DNA of 64,000 nt from Candidatus Thorarchaeota archaeon. GTDB lineage: Archaea > Asgardarchaeota > Thorarchaeia > Thorarchaeales > Thorarchaeaceae. The translations under genes were made by a program, and so were the position numbers. The notes under the pieces were generated by a model. The model made no database searches. It worked only from the letters and a program-made list of their open reading frames with translations, and was not told the DNA's origin. Positions 3,080-49,964 of this stretch are shown here, piece by piece; the stretch's first letter is position 1; the number at the start of each line of letters is the position of its first letter. The stretch spans positions 1 through 64,000 of the forward strand of contig JAWOEX010000019.1 in the NCBI GenBank assembly GCA_046482545.1, in the 5' to 3' direction.

Positions 3080-4171
3080 ATGTTTATGGTGCATACCATG
3101 CCCAACGACGATGTGCTGCTTCGTGTTGAGAACCTTAGAGCCTACTATCCTTCGAAGAAGGGGCTCATTCGTGCGGTTGATGATGTCTCATTCGAAGTGA
3201 AAGAAGGTGAATGCCTTGGTCTATTGGGTGAGAGTGGATGTGGAAAATCGTCCCTCGCTCTAGCAGTCTTGGGGCTGTTTGAAAAGATAGCAAGATTCGA
3301 AGCTGGTGCATCGAACATTCCCGGGTTGCGAGAAAGATTTGATGAAGAAGGTAACGAGAGATCAGGAGTCCATGGGAAGGTATTCTTTAGGGGCAAGGAG
3401 CTAACAGCCCTCCCTGAAGATGAATTGGTCAAGATTCGTGGCGAAGAGATAACACTCATCCCTCAAGGTCTTGGTCATGCTCTTAATCCTCAATATAGCG
3501 TCGGCATGCAGGCAGGTGAACCAGTTGAAATCCATAAAGAAGACGTGAGACTTCCTGAGCTCAAGAAGCAGGTGCTTGAGTGTCTCGACTTGGTACAGCT
3601 CCCAGACTCAGGGACTCGATTCGTACTTGACCCAGGTAGCTTCAGTGGTGGAGAAGCTCAGAGAATACTTATCGCTATGTCCATAATTTCCGGTCCGTAC
3701 CTTGTCATTGCAGACGAACCAACATCTGCACTCGATGTGACTATTCAGCGGCAGATTCTTGATGTTCTCGAGATGATTCGCGACGACTTTGATGTCTCCA
3801 CCCTTCTGATTAGTCATGATGCCGGTGTGATAGCAGACTTGGCTGATCGGGTGGCCGTGATGTACGCAGGAAAGATTATGGAACTGGGTGATGCAGTTCA
3901 AATATATCATGAACCCGCCCATCCATATACGAGGGGGCTGATGGCGTCATATCCAAGAATAGCTATGATGCAGATGAAAGAGGGAAAAGAAAGGCCAAGG
4001 CTTCGTGGAATACAGGGGAATCCACCGGAACCAACCAACATACCTTCGGGTTGTCCCTTTCATCCGAGATGCGAATTTGCAATTGGCCAATGCAGCACAG
4101 ATGTGCCAGAGTATCGTGAAGTAGAACAAGGACATTTTATTCGATGCATACGCTGGGAAGAACTGAATTGA
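3080..4171 (+). CDS. Oligopeptide/dipeptide ABC transporter ATP-binding protein (OppD/DppD-like)
   Basis: GESGCGKS, FSGGEAQR, IADEPTSALD, GCPFHPRC. Confidence 0.9.
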   Translation: MFMVHTMPNDDVLLRVENLRAYYPSKKGLIRAVDDVSFEVKEGECLGLLGESGCGKSSLALAVLGLFEKIARFEAGASNIPGLRERFDEEGNERSGVHGKVFFRGKELTALPEDELVKIRGEEITLIPQGLGHALNPQYSVGMQAGEPVEIHKEDVRLPELKKQVLECLDLVQLPDSGTRFVLDPGSFSGGEAQRILIAMSIISGPYLVIADEPTSALDVTIQRQILDVLEMIRDDFDVSTLLISHDAGVIADLADRVAVMYAGKIMELGDAVQIYHEPAHPYTRGLMASYPRIAMMQMKEGKERPRLRGIQGNPPEPTNIPSGCPFHPRCEFAIGQCSTDVPEYREVEQGHFIRCIRWEELN

Positions 4172-6969: not shown

Positions 6970-7992
6970 TCAAGAACTTTGCTCTGCCTTGGCAAATCTC
7001 TGTTGAGCGCTTACTCCAAATTCCAAATCTGGAGCAAAATGGCATTTAACGAGATGTCCGTCACCAACATCACGTAGCTCTGGCTCCTCCTCTTTACAAA
7101 TATCCTTAGCGAATTCACAGCGTGGATGAAAACGACAGCCCTTCGGTGGACTGATAGGAGTCGGCACTTCTCCTTTGAGTATCTGAGCTCGACCTGCATA
7201 TTCGGGGTTAGGTATAGGTACTGCTGACACTAGAGCAAACGAGTATGGATGCAAAGGATTTCTGAAGATGTCTCTGGGAGTCAGTTCCACTATCTGACCC
7301 AGATACATAACGGCGATTCTATCGCTCATATGTTTCACAACTGAAAGATCATGAGAGATGAACATATAGGTCAGATCAAACTCTTTCTGCAAATCTTTCA
7401 TCAGATTCAAGGATTGCGCCTGAACAGATACGTCAGTGCTAGACGTTGGTTCATCCATGACAATGAAATCAGGATTCAGTGCAAGTGCCCTAGCTATACA
7501 AATCCTCTGACGCTGGCCACCACTAAACTCGTGAGGAAATCGATTCAGGTGGTCTTCTGTTAGACCCACCTTTCGGAGCAGCTCGAGCACCATGTCTCGC
7601 ATCTTTGGTCCCCGTGCGATACCATTCACAACAAGAGGTTCACCAACGGAATTCTTTATGGTAACGCGGGGGTCAAGTGAAGCCATAGGATCTTGGAAGA
7701 CAATACCCATCTTGCTTCTAAGCTTACGCAAATCTCTTCCGGAGATGTGAGTTATGTCTTCACCTTGAAATATGATTTTGCCTCCGGTCGGCTCAATGAG
7801 ACGCAACATCGTTCTTCCAAGTGTGGTCTTTCCACAGCCTGATTCACCAACAAGACCCATGGTCTCTCCTTTCTTTATCTCAAAGGAAACACCATCGACC
7901 GCGTGAACTTGGCCTACAACAGAACGGAAAACACCGCCTGTTAGGGGGAAATACTTTTCGAGGTCTTCGACTTCAATGAGTGTTTCAGTCAT
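6970..7992 (-). CDS. oppF: Oligopeptide ABC transporter ATP-binding protein OppF/AppF
   Basis: [31 protein letters not shown]; start taken at MTETL, 2 nt after the upstream stop. Confidence 0.9.
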
Positions 7993-7993
7993 T

Positions 7994-9166
7994 CTATTTC
8001 TCCTCCTGTTGGTCTTCCAAAGGATGATGACAAGCAACCCAGTGGTCAGGTCCAAGTTCCCGAAGCTCTGGTTTCTCTTGTCTACAAATTTCAGTAGCAT
8101 AGTCACATCGAGGGTGAAAACGACATCCCGGCGGTGGCTCAATCAGATTTGGAACTGTTCCTGAAATCTGAGGTAGTCTTTCACGATCTTCGTGGAGCTT
8201 AGGAATCGCCTTCAGGAGCCCGGTTGTATAAGGATGAAGAGGATTCTCAAAAAGCTCTTTTGTGCTGGCGGTTTCAACGGTATTGCCAGCATACATAACG
8301 GTAACCCAGTCACAGGTTTCGGCCACGACACCCAAGTCGTGAGTTATTATGATGATGGAAGATCCAATCTCTTTCTTGAGATCATTGAGCAAATCGAGCA
8401 CTTGAGCCTGAACCGTGACATCAAGCGCTGTAGTAGCTTCATCGGCAATGAGGATGCTCGGATTGCATGATATAGCCATAGCAATAAGTGCTCTCTGACG
8501 CATCCCACCAGAAAGCTCATGGGGGTATTGATTAGCCACTTTTTCAGGGCTCGGTATTCTTACTATCTCTAGTATCCTAATGGCTTCTCTCTTTGCAGCC
8601 TTCTTGGCATCCTTTTCATCCGGTTCTGGAGGGTCATCTAGCTGCGATTCATAATGTTCTATTTTCGCTTTGATTTCAGAGCGCCTCTCATCTGGAATGT
8701 CGCCCTCAAGAGCTTCCTCTAAATTCTCGATCTTCATTTCCAGAACATCGCGTGAAAGGTCCTGATGCAGGTTGACTACTTCGGCTATCTGGTCGCCTAT
8801 TCGAAAGACTGGATTCGGAAAAGTTGCCGGGTCCTGAAATACAATAGCAATCCTTCTACCGCGGATTTTAAGCATTTCATCGCTAGCGAGGTCAAGAATA
8901 GGTATCTCTGTTATTTCTCCCGTTTCCTTATCTTTGTCGTAGAACCGCACTGAACCTTCTTCGATTACGCCAGGCGCTTCCACAATCCGGAGAATGGATC
9001 GTGCAGTAACCGATTTTCCACAGCCAGTTTCGCCCACAAGTCCCATGGTATCTCCCCTTCTCAGGAACATCTCAACACCATCTAGAGCTTTTACGACTCC
9101 TTCGTATGTATAGAAATTGGTCTTCAGATTACGAACTTCAAGTACTAGGTCATGAGGTGTCGTCAT
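7994..9166 (-). CDS. oppD: Oligopeptide ABC transporter ATP-binding protein OppD/DppD
   Basis: GETGCGKS, LSGGMRQR, IADEATTALD; ~50-aa helical insertion. Confidence 0.9.
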   Translation of the reverse strand: MTTPHDLVLEVRNLKTNFYTYEGVVKALDGVEMFLRRGDTMGLVGETGCGKSVTARSILRIVEAPGVIEEGSVRFYDKDKETGEITEIPILDLASDEMLKIRGRRIAIVFQDPATFPNPVFRIGDQIAEVVNLHQDLSRDVLEMKIENLEEALEGDIPDERRSEIKAKIEHYESQLDDPPEPDEKDAKKAAKREAIRILEIVRIPSPEKVANQYPHELSGGMRQRALIAMAISCNPSILIADEATTALDVTVQAQVLDLLNDLKKEIGSSIIIITHDLGVVAETCDWVTVMYAGNTVETASTKELFENPLHPYTTGLLKAIPKLHEDRERLPQISGTVPNLIEPPPGCRFHPRCDYATEICRQEKPELRELGPDHWVACHHPLEDQQEEK

Positions 9167-14802: not shown

Positions 14803-14855
14803 ATTCGGGCATTTTTTCAAATCTGATTTCGTGTGATTTCTTGTCTAGCTCAGGA

Positions 14856-15128
14856 TATAACCTGTCTCTTACAGCTGTAGCAACTGCTTGAAACTTCTGT
14901 GTTCCGCCCTTCTTCTGCCAGCGTTACCGCCCCCAAGATACCCGTAGGCCCTTGAGTCAGCAGGGGCTTCGGCCGCGTGCTTCGTGACAGAACACTAGCC
15001 CCCTTCTCTAGTCCTGCTGGGACGAAGTTCCGTACTGAGCCTAACAAACTCCCCTCGTCTGTGGTCAGGAAAGGAGTTGCAGGAAATCTTACACTGCTCT
15101 ACCCTGGTTGTTTAGGATTCTGTAAGCT
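14856..15128 (-). mobile_element. Structured non-coding repeat element, copy A (short form, ~273 bp)
   Basis: Reverse complement aligns to both ends of copies B and C but lacks their 266-nt internal module; flanked by degenerate direct repeats at 14839-14855 and 15128-15143. Confidence 0.85.
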
Positions 15129-15293
15129 CTTGGTTATTCAGGAAACCTACATTTAATATTGTTAAGGTGATAGCTCTGTGTTAGAATACCCAAATGTGAA
15201 GTAGGTATCTTGGTCGTAGAAACCTAACTTCACAGCAAGGGACAGAATAGAAGTTAACAAAAGTATTAGATTGTTCGAAGATGGAGGTTTACT

Positions 15294-29212: not shown

Positions 29213-30340
29213 ATGTCAACAGGTCAGACCCTTCAAACCCAGATTCATGTTGACCCGGTCCAAGGTAAGAAAGATATCAGGCTTTTTACCCCGCCGGGCA
29301 TCCTTATCGAATCTCGTAGATATCCTACTGTTATAGCCAGCGTATTGGCATCATCATCCCCCTCCGAGCATATAGCTCTCTTTAATCATCCGGAGTCCTG
29401 GGAAGGACTCGACAAAACTACTATTCTCTCGATGAGGAGACGCTTGTATCGCTTGCAGATTCCCCTCAATGCCAGACGTATGGAACCATATGAAGCCGTG
29501 CACAAACTCCACCAGATAGCCCTGAGTGTCTCGCCTGTCGCAGTAGAGATAAGAAGTCAGGGCCTTCCTCATTCTAACTTAGTTACAAACCCGGGACAAC
29601 TACCATGTGGGACAGAAGTTCCTGCTGAATCACTTGAAATCATATCAAATACAGAAACCAGCAGAGTCGCAAAAACAATAACCGAGAAAGATATTCCCGC
29701 TGCACAGGGAGTTTGGCAACTACTTGAATACGACTATTCACTTGATCAAGCGGCACGTCTCATGGCGGTAGGTCTTCTCGGGAAGATTGGAAACCGAAGA
29801 ATCATCACAACCCGTGGGGCATACAAAGCGGCAATTGATGCTTTCATTGGCCGAACAATAATTGAGCTAGCTGAAAGACCGTTGGCAAATAGAAGAACAG
29901 TATTCTCTGCCAACTTGTTCAACGACGATTTCACTGTGTTCCTACAGCCAGGTGAGCCAGCAGTTGACTACGTGAGAATGGATATCAGGCCATCGGGCAC
30001 AAGTCAAGGATATTCATTTGAGCGAGAAAATGGTTCCGCTTCTGATGCCAAGTCCTCACTTTACGCTGACCATGCCCGATACTCAGCTTACAGGCATCTC
30101 TTAGCAAATCAGCTGAAAGCACATATTACGATTTTTCACTGCTCCAAAACACCTAGGAATAATCTTCTGGGTCCATGGATTGCTAGAGCTGGTGTGGAGA
30201 AAGCGCTTTCATCAGGACCCAGACGTGTAGGTACGGGTCAATCGGATTCAGATCTTCTCAACGGAATCCTTTCACCAAACTTGAAAAAATGGACTCACTC
30301 GCTTCCGTTCAAGAATAGGCAAGTTTTACAAAAATCCTAA
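29213..30340 (+). CDS. Divergent Nre-family (DUF650/651) DNA repair protein
   Basis: TPP.....YP, HPESW, QIALS..PV.VE, GLLG....R.IITTR follow Nre motif order; the stop codon is supplied by repeat copy B. Confidence 0.75.
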   Translation: MSTGQTLQTQIHVDPVQGKKDIRLFTPPGILIESRRYPTVIASVLASSSPSEHIALFNHPESWEGLDKTTILSMRRRLYRLQIPLNARRMEPYEAVHKLHQIALSVSPVAVEIRSQGLPHSNLVTNPGQLPCGTEVPAESLEIISNTETSRVAKTITEKDIPAAQGVWQLLEYDYSLDQAARLMAVGLLGKIGNRRIITTRGAYKAAIDAFIGRTIIELAERPLANRRTVFSANLFNDDFTVFLQPGEPAVDYVRMDIRPSGTSQGYSFERENGSASDAKSSLYADHARYSAYRHLLANQLKAHITIFHCSKTPRNNLLGPWIARAGVEKALSSGPRRVGTGQSDSDLLNGILSPNLKKWTHSLPFKNRQVLQKS

Positions 30341-30875
30341 AGAATCCGAGTGGAAGAGTGTAAACTATCTGTAAGAGTTCCTGTAAGTGCTACTGTGACC
30401 GAGGGCGATAGGACTTTATTAGGCCCAGTAAGAAATTTCGTTTCAGTAGGACTAGGCAAGTGGGCTAGTGGTGTAACACGACGCACGCGGCCGAAAGCTG
30501 CAAGGAAGACTCGTTCTTCTAAACAGAAGTCCCCACTCTCCAAACAAGGGGCCTCATCGAGCTCTGGAGAGTCCGCGGCTGTTCACCTTGTCCGTAATGG
30601 ACCTCCTCAGTTACGGCGACAAGGCTGAGGTGGGTGATCATGACCACGCCGTGGTAAGAACTGTGGAAGACCTCGCTGTCGCCGGGAGTGTGACCCGGAC
30701 AACGACAGGAGACAGAAGCCAGGACCGCAGGAGGAATTCCATTCCGATGAACGCGGACAAAGCCCCTGCTGACTCACGGAGCCACTGGGTAACCTTGGGG
30801 GCGGCGACGCTGGCAGGGGAAGGGTGGAACACAGAAGTTTCATGCAGTTCCTAGAACTGTAAGAAATGGGTTATA
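30324..30875 (+). mobile_element. Structured non-coding repeat element, copy B (long form, ~552 bp)
   Basis: Colinear with copy C over nearly its whole length; flanked by TCAAGAATAGGCAAG (30309-30323) and TCAAGAAAAGGAGG (30876-30889). Confidence 0.88.
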
Positions 30876-30908
30876 TCAAGAAAAGGAGGTAGTTGCCGAT
30901 TCCATGAG

Positions 30909-34866: not shown

Positions 34867-34962
34867 ATGCGTTTCGATGAAGATTGGGACGAAGACGAAG
34901 ACTGGGACGAAGACGACGATTGGGACGAAGACGAAGACTGGGACGAAGACGACGATTGGTAA
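34867..34962 (+). CDS. Candidate 31-aa hyperacidic (DWDEDE)n microprotein
   Basis: MRFDEDWDEDEDWDEDDDWDEDEDWDEDDDW*; SD AGGTGA at 34851-34856. Confidence 0.6.
   Translation: MRFDEDWDEDEDWDEDDDWDEDEDWDEDDDW
34882..34959 (+). repeat. 18-bp tandem repeat (perfect 36-bp higher-order duplication)
   Basis: GA(T/C)TGGGACGAAGACGA(A/C) x4 plus partial unit. Confidence 0.95.
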
Positions 34963-35058
34963 ACATCTCCCAGTAATGAATCTAAGTCTCGCGTCCAAGT
35001 GAGATATTGAAAAATGATTGTGAGCCTTGATTTTTTGGCTCACAATCCTCTGTTGTCT

Positions 35059-47729: not shown

Positions 47730-49534
47730 TCACGGCAATTCGGTCTTTTCTTCATAGATTTCAGGCAGGAAATAGGTTCCAATAATGGCAACTGCTATCA
47801 TTATGGCTATCACAACTGTAAGTCCCGGGAGATTATAGGGGGAAAGGCAAAACCCCCAACTGCTGGTCCAATTAGCATACCAGAGCCGAAGAAAATGCTA
47901 TGCACTCCCATGGTAGCACCCCGTGTTTCTTCCTCAGACACATCGGTAAGATAAGCCATGGATGCTGGTGGTATATACCAGCGAGATATCCAAGAGCTGG
48001 TAGAAGCGGCCATTTCGACCAAAGTGCGCTGATATTATCAGAATTTGCTAGCAGCAGATATGCAAGCACACCAAAACCCAAGAGACCGCTAATAATGAAT
48101 GGCCGACGTTTTTTCAAGCAATCGGATAGATACCCATGGCGATGATGCCCAGAAGCAAGGCTCTTCTAAGCATTCCGAACAGAATTATGAACTCGATGGC
48201 TGTGATGTAGAATTCGCTTTCGATAATACGCTGAGCATATCCAATGAGAAGACCGTACATTGAAATGATTGGCACGTAGAATAGTATCATCTTCTGAATT
48301 CTGCGGTCACTAGCTACTTCTTTTACAAGATCTGAAACACTCATTTGGACTTGAATATCCGTTCGGGTTTCCGAAAACCCGATATTTGCTATGAGTCCGC
48401 TAATAAGACAGGCTTAACCTGTAATTCCCAGAATGAGAACCGGCATGAAACCAAACTCCAGCAGAATGGCTCCCATTCCATAACCACTGATGAGCCCCAT
48501 CAGTGTTGAAAGATTGTAATAGCTCATGAGATTTGCCCCATTGTCCTTCGCTGACATGTCTCGTATCATAGATAGGGCTGTTGACCCCTCCCAAGCGGCT
48601 CCTAAACCAAAGATGACTGATGCAATCAAAAGAATTGGGACGTTCGGAGTAAAAGCAAAGCTAAGTGCAGCAAATCCCGTTATGAAGAGGCTTGTAATCA
48701 GAATGGGGTTTCTTCCGATTTTGTCACTATATGATCCGAAGAATGAGACTGACGTCAATTCTGCTACGGGATAGACTAGCATTACTGCTGCTATCTCCAG
48801 CACATGTGTTCCTCCACCCATGTATGAAGAACTCTGGAGTGCTCGGAATTTTACAAAATCCTAAATAAATCGGCACATAGAAGTGTAAGATTTCTGTAAG
48901 ATGTGACGTGAACCGATGGACCCGTCCAAAACGGTGTGTTTACCTTCTCTCTTCTCGAGCACTAGGGGGCTCTATTCCCTGCAGTACGAAACAACTCTAC
49001 AGTAGGACTAGGCAAGTGGGCTAGTGCTCTGTCACGAAGCACGCGGCCGAAACCCTAAGAGAAGACTCTGCTTCTCGACGGAAGTCCTCACTCTCCATAC
49101 AGGACCTTCATTCAAGGTCCGGAGAGTCCGCGGCTGTTCACCATGTCCAGACGGACCTCCTCAGCGGCGGCGACAAAGCTGAGTCGGGTGATCATGACCA
49201 CGCCGTGGCAAGCACTGTGGAAGACCTCGCTGTTGCCGGGAGTGATGACCCGGGATGACGACAGGAGAAGGAAGCCAGGACCGCGGGAGGAATCCCATTC
49301 CGGTGAACCCGGACGAAGCCCGTGCTGACTCAAGGGTCTACGGGTATCTTGGGGGCGGCGGCGCTGGCAGGGGAAGGGTGGAACACAGAAATTTCATGCA
49401 GTGTACGCAACTGTAAGAAACAGGTAATGTGAATTACTGCGATACTGATGTAGAAGGATGCCCGTACTATGATAGTGAATGTGTAAAGTGCAATGAGATT
49501 CAGGGTATGTTCTGAGGATTTAAGGCCTCTTCAT
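47730..49534 (-). pseudogene. MFS transporter pseudogene interrupted by repeat copy C, with several frameshifts
   Basis: TM1 (LNLIALYTFTIIVRASFYISIAVI) lies at 49430-49520; the rest (QSSSYM..GSYSDKIGR; DVSEEETRGATMG) lies at 47730-48840 in several frames. Confidence 0.85.
48849..49429 (+). mobile_element. Structured non-coding repeat element, copy C (long form, ~581 bp)
   Basis: Colinear with B; inserted inside the MFS gene; degenerate flanking repeats at 48835-48848 and 49430-49443. Confidence 0.9.
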
Positions 49535-49601
49535 TTAATCTCCTGTTTCTGCTCGTGTGAATCACTCTCTTTTTATAAGCTCTGGTTAGACTACGCTTAC
49601 C

Positions 49602-49964
49602 ATGTCCACTGAGAAACCATCATCGGCTACGGGATCTCGGGAGTATGTCTATCTGACCCTGTACCGACTGAAAGATCTCACAGACAAAGAGAAGAGAGAC
49701 TGGTTTGAGAAGTGGTCTGAAATCCGGAATTCTTTGCCTGAAGGAATCCGTATTGTCACAGAGGCGGGGAATGCTTTCGGTACTGATTTCACAGGCTTCA
49801 CCGTTTTTGAAGGCCCATTTGAAGCATTTGGCCAGCTCATGTCTACCTTAGAAAGGCATGCAGGAGCGCTTGTTGAGAAAACATATACTATAATCGGTAC
49901 CAAGGGCCTATTTGATCCCTATTATGGTATCAAGCAAATAATGGAGAAAAGACCAATTGACTGA
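49602..49964 (+). CDS. Hypothetical protein (dimeric alpha/beta-barrel-like possible)
   Basis: 120-aa ORF with TATA-like TTTATAA upstream. Confidence 0.7.
   Translation: MSTEKPSSATGSREYVYLTLYRLKDLTDKEKRDWFEKWSEIRNSLPEGIRIVTEAGNAFGTDFTGFTVFEGPFEAFGQLMSTLERHAGALVEKTYTIIGTKGLFDPYYGIKQIMEKRPID

Follow-up and report, generated by a model that had tools for sequence, protein, structure and literature searches.

The window, the whole 64,000-nucleotide stretch of Candidatus Thorarchaeota DNA that was analyzed (contig JAWOEX010000019.1, G000:C10:1-64000 in our numbering of genomes and contigs), carries a short insert, copy C, that splits a gene for a transporter of the major facilitator superfamily (MFS). 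We think it probable that copy C is a guide-RNA cassette from an Asgard aCas1-TnpB transposon, inserted at a TCNNGA site by way of a matched core, and that the giant protein of its full-size parents is the likeliest mover. The insert is protein-free and comes to 595 bp when counted with one core hexamer; at the level of sequence, homology to the parents shows it to be a non-autonomous derivative of an aCas1-TnpB element with both protein genes deleted.

The MFS gene is read on the minus strand, where the original prediction had placed an AGGAG motif and an ATG start. Both are present (49544-49540 and 49534), as is the frameshift that was said to follow them, although this is a 4-nt insertion (net +1) rather than a 1-nt change; past it the frame reads GLKSSEHT...RASFYISIAVI. 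The gene is then broken by two imperfect hexamers, TTCACA (49433-49428) and TCCAGA (48838-48833), enclosing 589 bp of foreign DNA. Removal of 595 bp does leave the frame open, with either hexamer (AVI-H-SSSY or AVI-Q-SSSY), but the ATT CAG junction that had been proposed is a hybrid of the two; orthologues read GTT ATC CAG AGT at this point. Intact, insert-free orthologues are found in two Thorarchaeia genomes of the same genus (L033 on G002:C129, 402 aa, and L034 on G001:C60, 413 aa), each with one TCCAGA hexamer at the corresponding site, and both share the two neighboring genes with the copy C locus (82% and 92–94% identity). The orthologues' N-terminus (MGLRASEH...RASFYVSIAVIQSSSYMGGG) matches the translation of 49430-49534, and 13 members of the MFS family align from the same start. 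The identity of the gene is supported by a match to Pfam MFS_1 (PF07690, E 3e-14, above the cut-off) together with the MFS domain's motif A.

The remainder of the gene is damaged, much as had been described: in this draft assembly it contains an in-frame TAA (48416-48414) and 1-nt deletions near 48131, 47973 and 47844, and it deviates at 15 of 139 otherwise invariant residues (10.8%, vs. 0–6% in intact orthologues). The insertion had been called “old,” which is only roughly right, since the neutral decay of the MFS gene comes to about 5% (an estimate), yet the left-end 60 nt of copy C are 98% identical to a full-size parent. This contrast, along with the five other lesions and the loss at invariant residues, is what could be expected if copy C were a passenger in a gene that was already dead when it arrived—a sequence of events that we regard as possible but doubtful, because one change in 70 nt also fits the estimated 5% decay (3.4 expected, with a probability of about 0.15 for one or none), the rest of copy C is 78–97% identical to its nearest relatives, and other copies in the family split long open reading frames (ORFs) that remain open on either side of the insertion. 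The metagenome collection yielded neither a closer strain nor an empty site, and no copy of the element turned up in viral contigs.

A single split MFS gene would be an ordinary insertion pseudogene; copy C is one of many. A profile of the conserved part finds 87 family copies in the genome, 47 of them near full length and 26.6 kb in all, and a motif search finds 83 right ends and 50 left ends. The element is present in 17 of the 24 genomes of the host family and in none of 16 outside it. Exact removal restores long ORFs at five other copies (C16:12132, C24:3114, C34:61300, C37:2273 and C16:8260) and, for the 8.2-kb full-size copy at C20:228523, a GNAT gene; the empty site for copy C36:7323 is supplied by a paralogue. 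With filled and empty sites and ORFs restored in this way, mobility is shown by comparison, beyond mere suggestion, and the earlier view of a mobile element located in a dead gene is borne out.

The family has also shaped its host: it takes up at least 26.6 kb of the 3.05-Mb genome, has split several genes and has left one deletion and one inversion. The inversion (C41:25044-25286) runs exactly from a left-end core to an internal hexamer, and in the copy concerned (C41:25044-25600) the inverted part comprises the left end, the promoter and the first 110 nt of the RNA. At L023:810-1950 (G000:C20:181316-182445) two head-to-head copies have one common core, and about 400 bp of a ThiF/MoeB-like gene between their sites are deleted. 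The deletion, like the inversion, has its endpoint exactly at a left-end core, and we take both as further support for the element-borne core described below. A fold-back junction (G000:C28:231784-231840) joins two right ends via the terminal hairpin.

What sets the family apart is its core. Both element ends abut a TCNNGA hexamer of palindromic consensus, and among 42 paired copies from three genomes the two hexamers are identical in 23 (4.2 expected by chance), while the central NN is equal on both sides in 28 (6.2 by chance). Beyond these 6 bp the flanks hardly match, save for a weak excess at −7 to −12; left/right mismatches fall at positions 2–5 in 8, 8, 10, and 12 of the 42 copies. The NN also follows the element: left ends with identical terminal 9-mers share it in 15 of 19 pairs, across loci and species, vs. 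11% for unrelated ends. When the fit of the core to consensus is compared with equal freedom of register, the right side is worse in 14 copies and the left side in none (p 1e-4). It is thus shown statistically that across the family the hexamer behaves as a 6-bp core traveling with the element and matched to its target, not a freely chosen site that is then duplicated. We could not find an element-borne, target-matched core with its NN inherited by end subfamily in the literature searched.

Two mismatched copies (copy C and C9:326599) have an orthologue that supplies the empty site, and in both the left-side hexamer is that of the host. The reverse assignment, with a foreign hexamer on the left and that of the target on the right, was also considered, but these orthologues show the opposite; the ThiF case is confounded by its deletion, and we make no general claim as to the side that belongs to the host. 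An ordinary target-site duplication of 6 bp, produced by a staggered Cas1-type attack on TCNNGA and blurred by later mutation and recombination between copies, would readily give the palindromic consensus, the 23 exact matches and the one hexamer at empty sites, and the right hexamers of copy C and C9:326599 could have mutated away from a host sequence kept on the left. We nevertheless consider it unlikely: plain duplication explains neither an NN that follows the end subfamily across loci and species nor core decay on one side (14 vs. 0), and the duplications made by casposases are about 15 bp (PMC9939771).

The two ends of copy C also bound full-size parents of 8.2–8.3 kb (C28:133391-141693, C20:228523-236754 and one on G001:C133), in which tnpB and the giant gene are accompanied by no more than one small ORF. 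The two genes are a divergent pair in all full loci, and the pair recurs at unrelated sites. The parent TnpB (545–560 aa, PF07282) has intact RuvC-I and RuvC-III aspartates (D243 and D438), with a glycine and an alternative glutamate arrangement for RuvC-II. The GTTCACTCA motif downstream of tnpB is found in the parents and in many copies, and related loci come from Candidatus Thorarchaeota, an Asgard host; in these respects, the motif included, the parent fits the Asgard aCas1-TnpB loci of PMC10691335.

The giant protein (1400–1960 aa) is divergent. Its sequence matches no Pfam family, the genome gives no hit to the Cas1 model PF01867, and solved structures searched by sequence yielded no Cas1, so that it is by its fold that we identify it. 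The N-terminal 250 residues (predicted fold, pLDDT 93.5) gave Cas1 proteins as all of the top 12 matches in a wide structural search (Z 8.9–12.7, root-mean-square deviation [rmsd] about 4, 149–200 residues aligned), the next unrelated structure having a Z of 6.1; Foldseek by itself reached a best E of 0.1, below significance. Of 86 family genomes, 50 have this domain, and E, H, D, D, and R are kept in at least 90% of 95 sequences. The middle part has the fold of RecA, RadA and Rad51 paralogues (Foldseek E 3e-5; Z up to 11.2) and lacks the Walker A lysine, and invariant D, K, Q, and Y motifs make up a PD-(D/E)xK nuclease set, a part barely tested against structures (one Cas4 row, Z 7.2, rmsd 7.6). 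Atlas searches of the C-terminal part and of a 224-aa ORF gave no matches. The latter (L018:3467-4138, no known family) overlaps the start of the giant gene and has a short tandem repeat array upstream (3290-3440). The ends of some parents adjoin tRNA-Gly(TCC) genes or tRNA 3′ halves (L020:10229-10303, L142:1711-1785, L060, and L091).

We infer that the giant protein is the likeliest mover, with aCas1 as transposase, because no other recombinase was found: it is the sole candidate within the ends, and its RecA-fold domain would suit the testing of short homology. The genome and four relatives (G000, G001, G002, G003, and G018; drafts, 90–99% complete) contain no tyrosine integrase, IS110 or IS607 transposase that we could find, and no IS607 serine recombinase gene (tnpA) was found in the bounded parents either. 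A search of the same five genomes for the PF00589 tyrosine recombinase was likewise negative, indicating that none was found to have a XerA-like gene. The genome does contain one broken, unlinked remnant of an IS200-type Y1 transposase (C24:6161; L092:1474-2214), truncated and fused to the front of a membrane-protein gene, with no element ends nearby.

The main competitor is a serine recombinase. The ends could be of IS607 type and be moved in trans by an enzyme whose gene has been lost, is missing from the assembly or has diverged too far, in which case the giant Cas1-like gene would be cargo. In other genera an IS607 tnpA does lie at the far end of aCas1-giant elements (for example, G081:C21, G010:C18, G021:C7, and G070:C20), and the phased xxACA motifs of our family resemble the left ends of these elements; moreover, the cores left by IS607 TnpA need not match, the one at the left end being that of the donor (10.1101/2023.11.20.567912), and it is on this account that we keep the idea as an outside chance. 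The IS607-bearing giant elements, however, differ at the left end, where they have a GG core and GGACA repeats, and they show no match to the copy C omega-RNA and at most a weak match to the parent TnpB; no IS607 or resolvase gene was found in the five genomes named above; and core mismatches spread over positions 2–5 are unlike a 2-bp core. The giant Cas1-like genes associated with both an IS607 serine transposase and left ends of the GG-core type form a separate subgroup (L123-L132, L137, and L138).

Copy C was inserted into the MFS gene at a TCNNGA site, as the empty orthologues show; in the scheme that we prefer, the parent's giant protein was probably the mover, acting in trans. The PD-(D/E)xK nuclease may free or trim the ends and so expose the hexamer, the ATPase-dead RecA-fold domain may pair the exposed hexamer with a similar target, and the Cas1 domain may then perform strand transfer. 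By analogy to IS605 and IS607 biology, the cassette RNA would load parent-made TnpB, with the flank past the right end as guide. The MFS gene has decayed since then. A bolder proposal, which we advance only tentatively, is that a Cas1 catalytic domain, a Cas4-like nuclease and an ATPase-dead RecA fold are fused into a new kind of transposase, one which selects targets through pairing with the element's 6-bp core, so that the donor sets the central bases of the target, and which mobilizes dozens of cassettes that lack protein genes but have a promoter and a guide RNA of their own, for TnpB supplied in trans.

The region of copy C that would serve as this RNA (about 425 nt, up to the right end, on the tnpB strand) overlaps the last 83 or so tnpB codons with its first ~250 nt. 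An alignment of 41 copies from several genera has 87 consensus pairs, 47 of them with compensatory change; none of 500 shuffles scored as high, and slid controls were 41–45% paired vs. 95%. Since the copies are related, this covariation is strong support and not a probability. It is also the evidence for structure in copy C itself, because folding it as a single sequence gave no advantage over shuffles, whichever strand was used (z −0.8 and −0.6). One-sided pair changes are mostly G-U on the plus strand, which supports the RNA strand, and the 5′ boundary is identical in 51 of 87 profile matches. We presume this to be the TnpB omega-RNA, its expression, TnpB binding and guided cleavage all being putative. 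About 30 nt upstream of the boundary, TTTATTA (up to one mismatch) is present in 38 of 46 short copies vs. 1 of 8 parents, from which the short copies would appear to be kept as transcribable guide cassettes, the box of copy C having decayed.

A large structured RNA within a gene could also suggest a self-splicing intron or a retro-element akin to the signal recognition particle RNA or Alu, and a search of Rfam with 48500-49700 to E 10 did return one weak U6atac-like match (E 2.3). This was one of three chance-level matches, however; no group I or II intron model was among them and none came near any gathering score, the RNA is antisense to the MFS message and is the 3′ part of tnpB loci, and copy C and protein-coding parents have DNA-type ends in common. 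We therefore hold such an origin to be extremely improbable, and the earlier remark that the insertion was “not rescued by splicing” is beside the point, there being no intron family match and a structured RNA opposite the MFS message strand.

For the presumed guide, two hints at a TnpB target motif are at hand. At none of 63 insertion sites is there a T three bases ahead of the core (tnpB strand), and at 54 of them this position has a purine (p 5e-10). The tnpB leaders of all seven parents examined (L018:2780-3000, L019:2830-3000, L020:8230-8420, L140, L027, L030, and L141) carry a second right-end-like unit followed by a match of 12–15 of 16 bases to their own tnpB promoter; the promoter target is preceded by T(A/C)AT, making the unit a candidate self-repressing guide. 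Should T(A/C)AT be the TnpB motif, the guide would begin one base past GGTTA and most empty sites would be uncuttable, so that homing by the cassettes is a conjecture. The non-T position three bases before the core was dropped as a target motif, since the promoter-aimed guide implies a T there. No second genomic match to the presumed right-end guides is convincing.

Several points weigh against the reading of copy C as a matched-core cassette moved by the giant protein. The end subfamilies are related by descent, so pair counts overstate independence, and the NN is mismatched in a third of copies. The role of the giant protein in movement is deduced, and the protein may be cargo, because similar giants in other genera ride with an ordinary IS607 transposase; draft assemblies, moreover, often miss repeats. 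The giant protein lacks the N-terminal beta domain that Cas1 uses to dimerize (the alignments begin at chain residue 82–113). Finally, the two hints at a TnpB target motif disagree, and a homing role is unsupported at most sites.

The features of copy C and of its two sister copies in the window are collected below. Copies A and B both have an extra TA adjoining the core, as seen in nine right ends. Elsewhere in the window, an 18-bp tandem repeat (34876-34965) encodes acidic (D/E)5-W units, and two tandem 390-aa ORFs with shared repeated DNA (6970-9166; families D3 and D9) are probably paralogous genes for ABC-type ATPases.

Features of copy C, the MFS gene that it splits and its sister copies (positions in the window)
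Feature	Position	Strand	Basis or remark
Shine-Dalgarno-like AGGAG of MFS gene	49540..49544	-	sequence
MFS pseudogene 5′ piece, codons 1-33, 4-nt insertion after ATG	49428..49534	-	codon alignment to L033, L034
MFS pseudogene 3′ piece, stop 48416-48414, 1-nt deletions near 48131, 47973, 47844	47730..48838	-	
Copy C, non-autonomous element	48833..49427	+	
Right-end-side core hexamer TTCACA	49428..49433	-	2 positions off the orthologues' TCCAGA; would begin the presumed guide
Left-end-side core hexamer TCCAGA	48833..48838	-	same as the orthologues' empty site
Left end, three TTACA/TGTAA motifs (48849, 48884, 48895)	48839..48904	+	first 60 nt 98% identical to left end of C20 parent
Linker	48905..49001	+	first part common only to copy C28:23979 (92%)
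TATA-like box CTCTATTC, decayed	48970..48977	+	
Structured RNA, presumed omega-RNA scaffold	49002..49427	+	covariation; homology to tnpB codons 468-550
Terminal hairpin	49398..49413	+	parents' loop has GTTCACTCA motif; copy C is a short-loop variant
Right end, consensus CTGTAAGAAAYRGGTTA, copy C ends GGTAA	49411..49427	+	83 such ends in genome; same on 8.3-kb parent
Copy B	30309..30881	+	TCTTGA core both sides, extra TA at right end
Copy A, internally deleted	14850..15143	-	TCAGGA core both sides, extra TA at right end

Asgard aCas1-TnpB elements are so far only predicted transposons, for which we found no published ends or target rule. Copy C and its sisters now provide such ends exactly, together with sites both filled and empty, a natural mini-substrate of 595 bp, and a rule for the core with a clear prediction: if the NN of the donor is changed, the NN of the target should follow. 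If the giant protein is indeed the mover, it would represent a Cas1-based route to mobility without a polymerase and with a homology-checked choice of target, which would bear on the way in which Cas1 integrases became joined to RNA-guided nucleases. The term aCas1 reportedly comes from Makarova et al. 2020.

The closest known relatives are the aCas1-TnpB loci with TnpB groups Cas1H-Asgard-1 and -2 (PMC10691335; Altae-Tran et al., 2023); we found no later description of such elements in the literature searched, in which that paper is represented by its main text. Like those loci, the copy C family has TnpB beside a divergent Cas1 homologue, an Asgard host, flanking repeats, and GTTCACTCA downstream of tnpB. 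End sequences, a target core, empty sites, and protein-free derivatives, all of which the copy C family has, are absent from the main text of PMC10691335, which suggests a guide upstream of GTTCACTCA, a stretch that here is the stem of the terminal hairpin, the variable flank beginning after GGTTA. Protein-free copies that keep both ends and the omega-RNA, and are presumed to be moved and loaded in trans, recall the PATE-like, omega-RNA-only derivatives of IS200/IS605 (Meers et al., 2023; PMC10055086), but PATE need a Y1 transposase and hairpin ends, whereas in the copy C family no Y1 gene is linked, each end has a palindromic 6-bp core, and the RNA is about 425 nt long. With IS607 and IStrons (10.1101/2023.11.20.567912) the family shares a core at both ends, repeated subterminal motifs, a right end that overlaps the omega-RNA, and a left-end core that follows the donor; IS607, however, has a GG dinucleotide core and a serine recombinase, while in the copy C family the core is TCNNGA and there is no intron and no serine recombinase that we could find. 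Unlike casposons (PMC9939771), the bounded parents have TnpB and no PolB, and the elements have subterminal 8-bp inverted repeats only, rather than terminal ones, and a 6-bp core in place of the ~15-bp duplication. What the family and the casposons have in common is a Cas1-fold protein as the only candidate integrase, and some parents of the family, as in casposons, adjoin tRNA genes.
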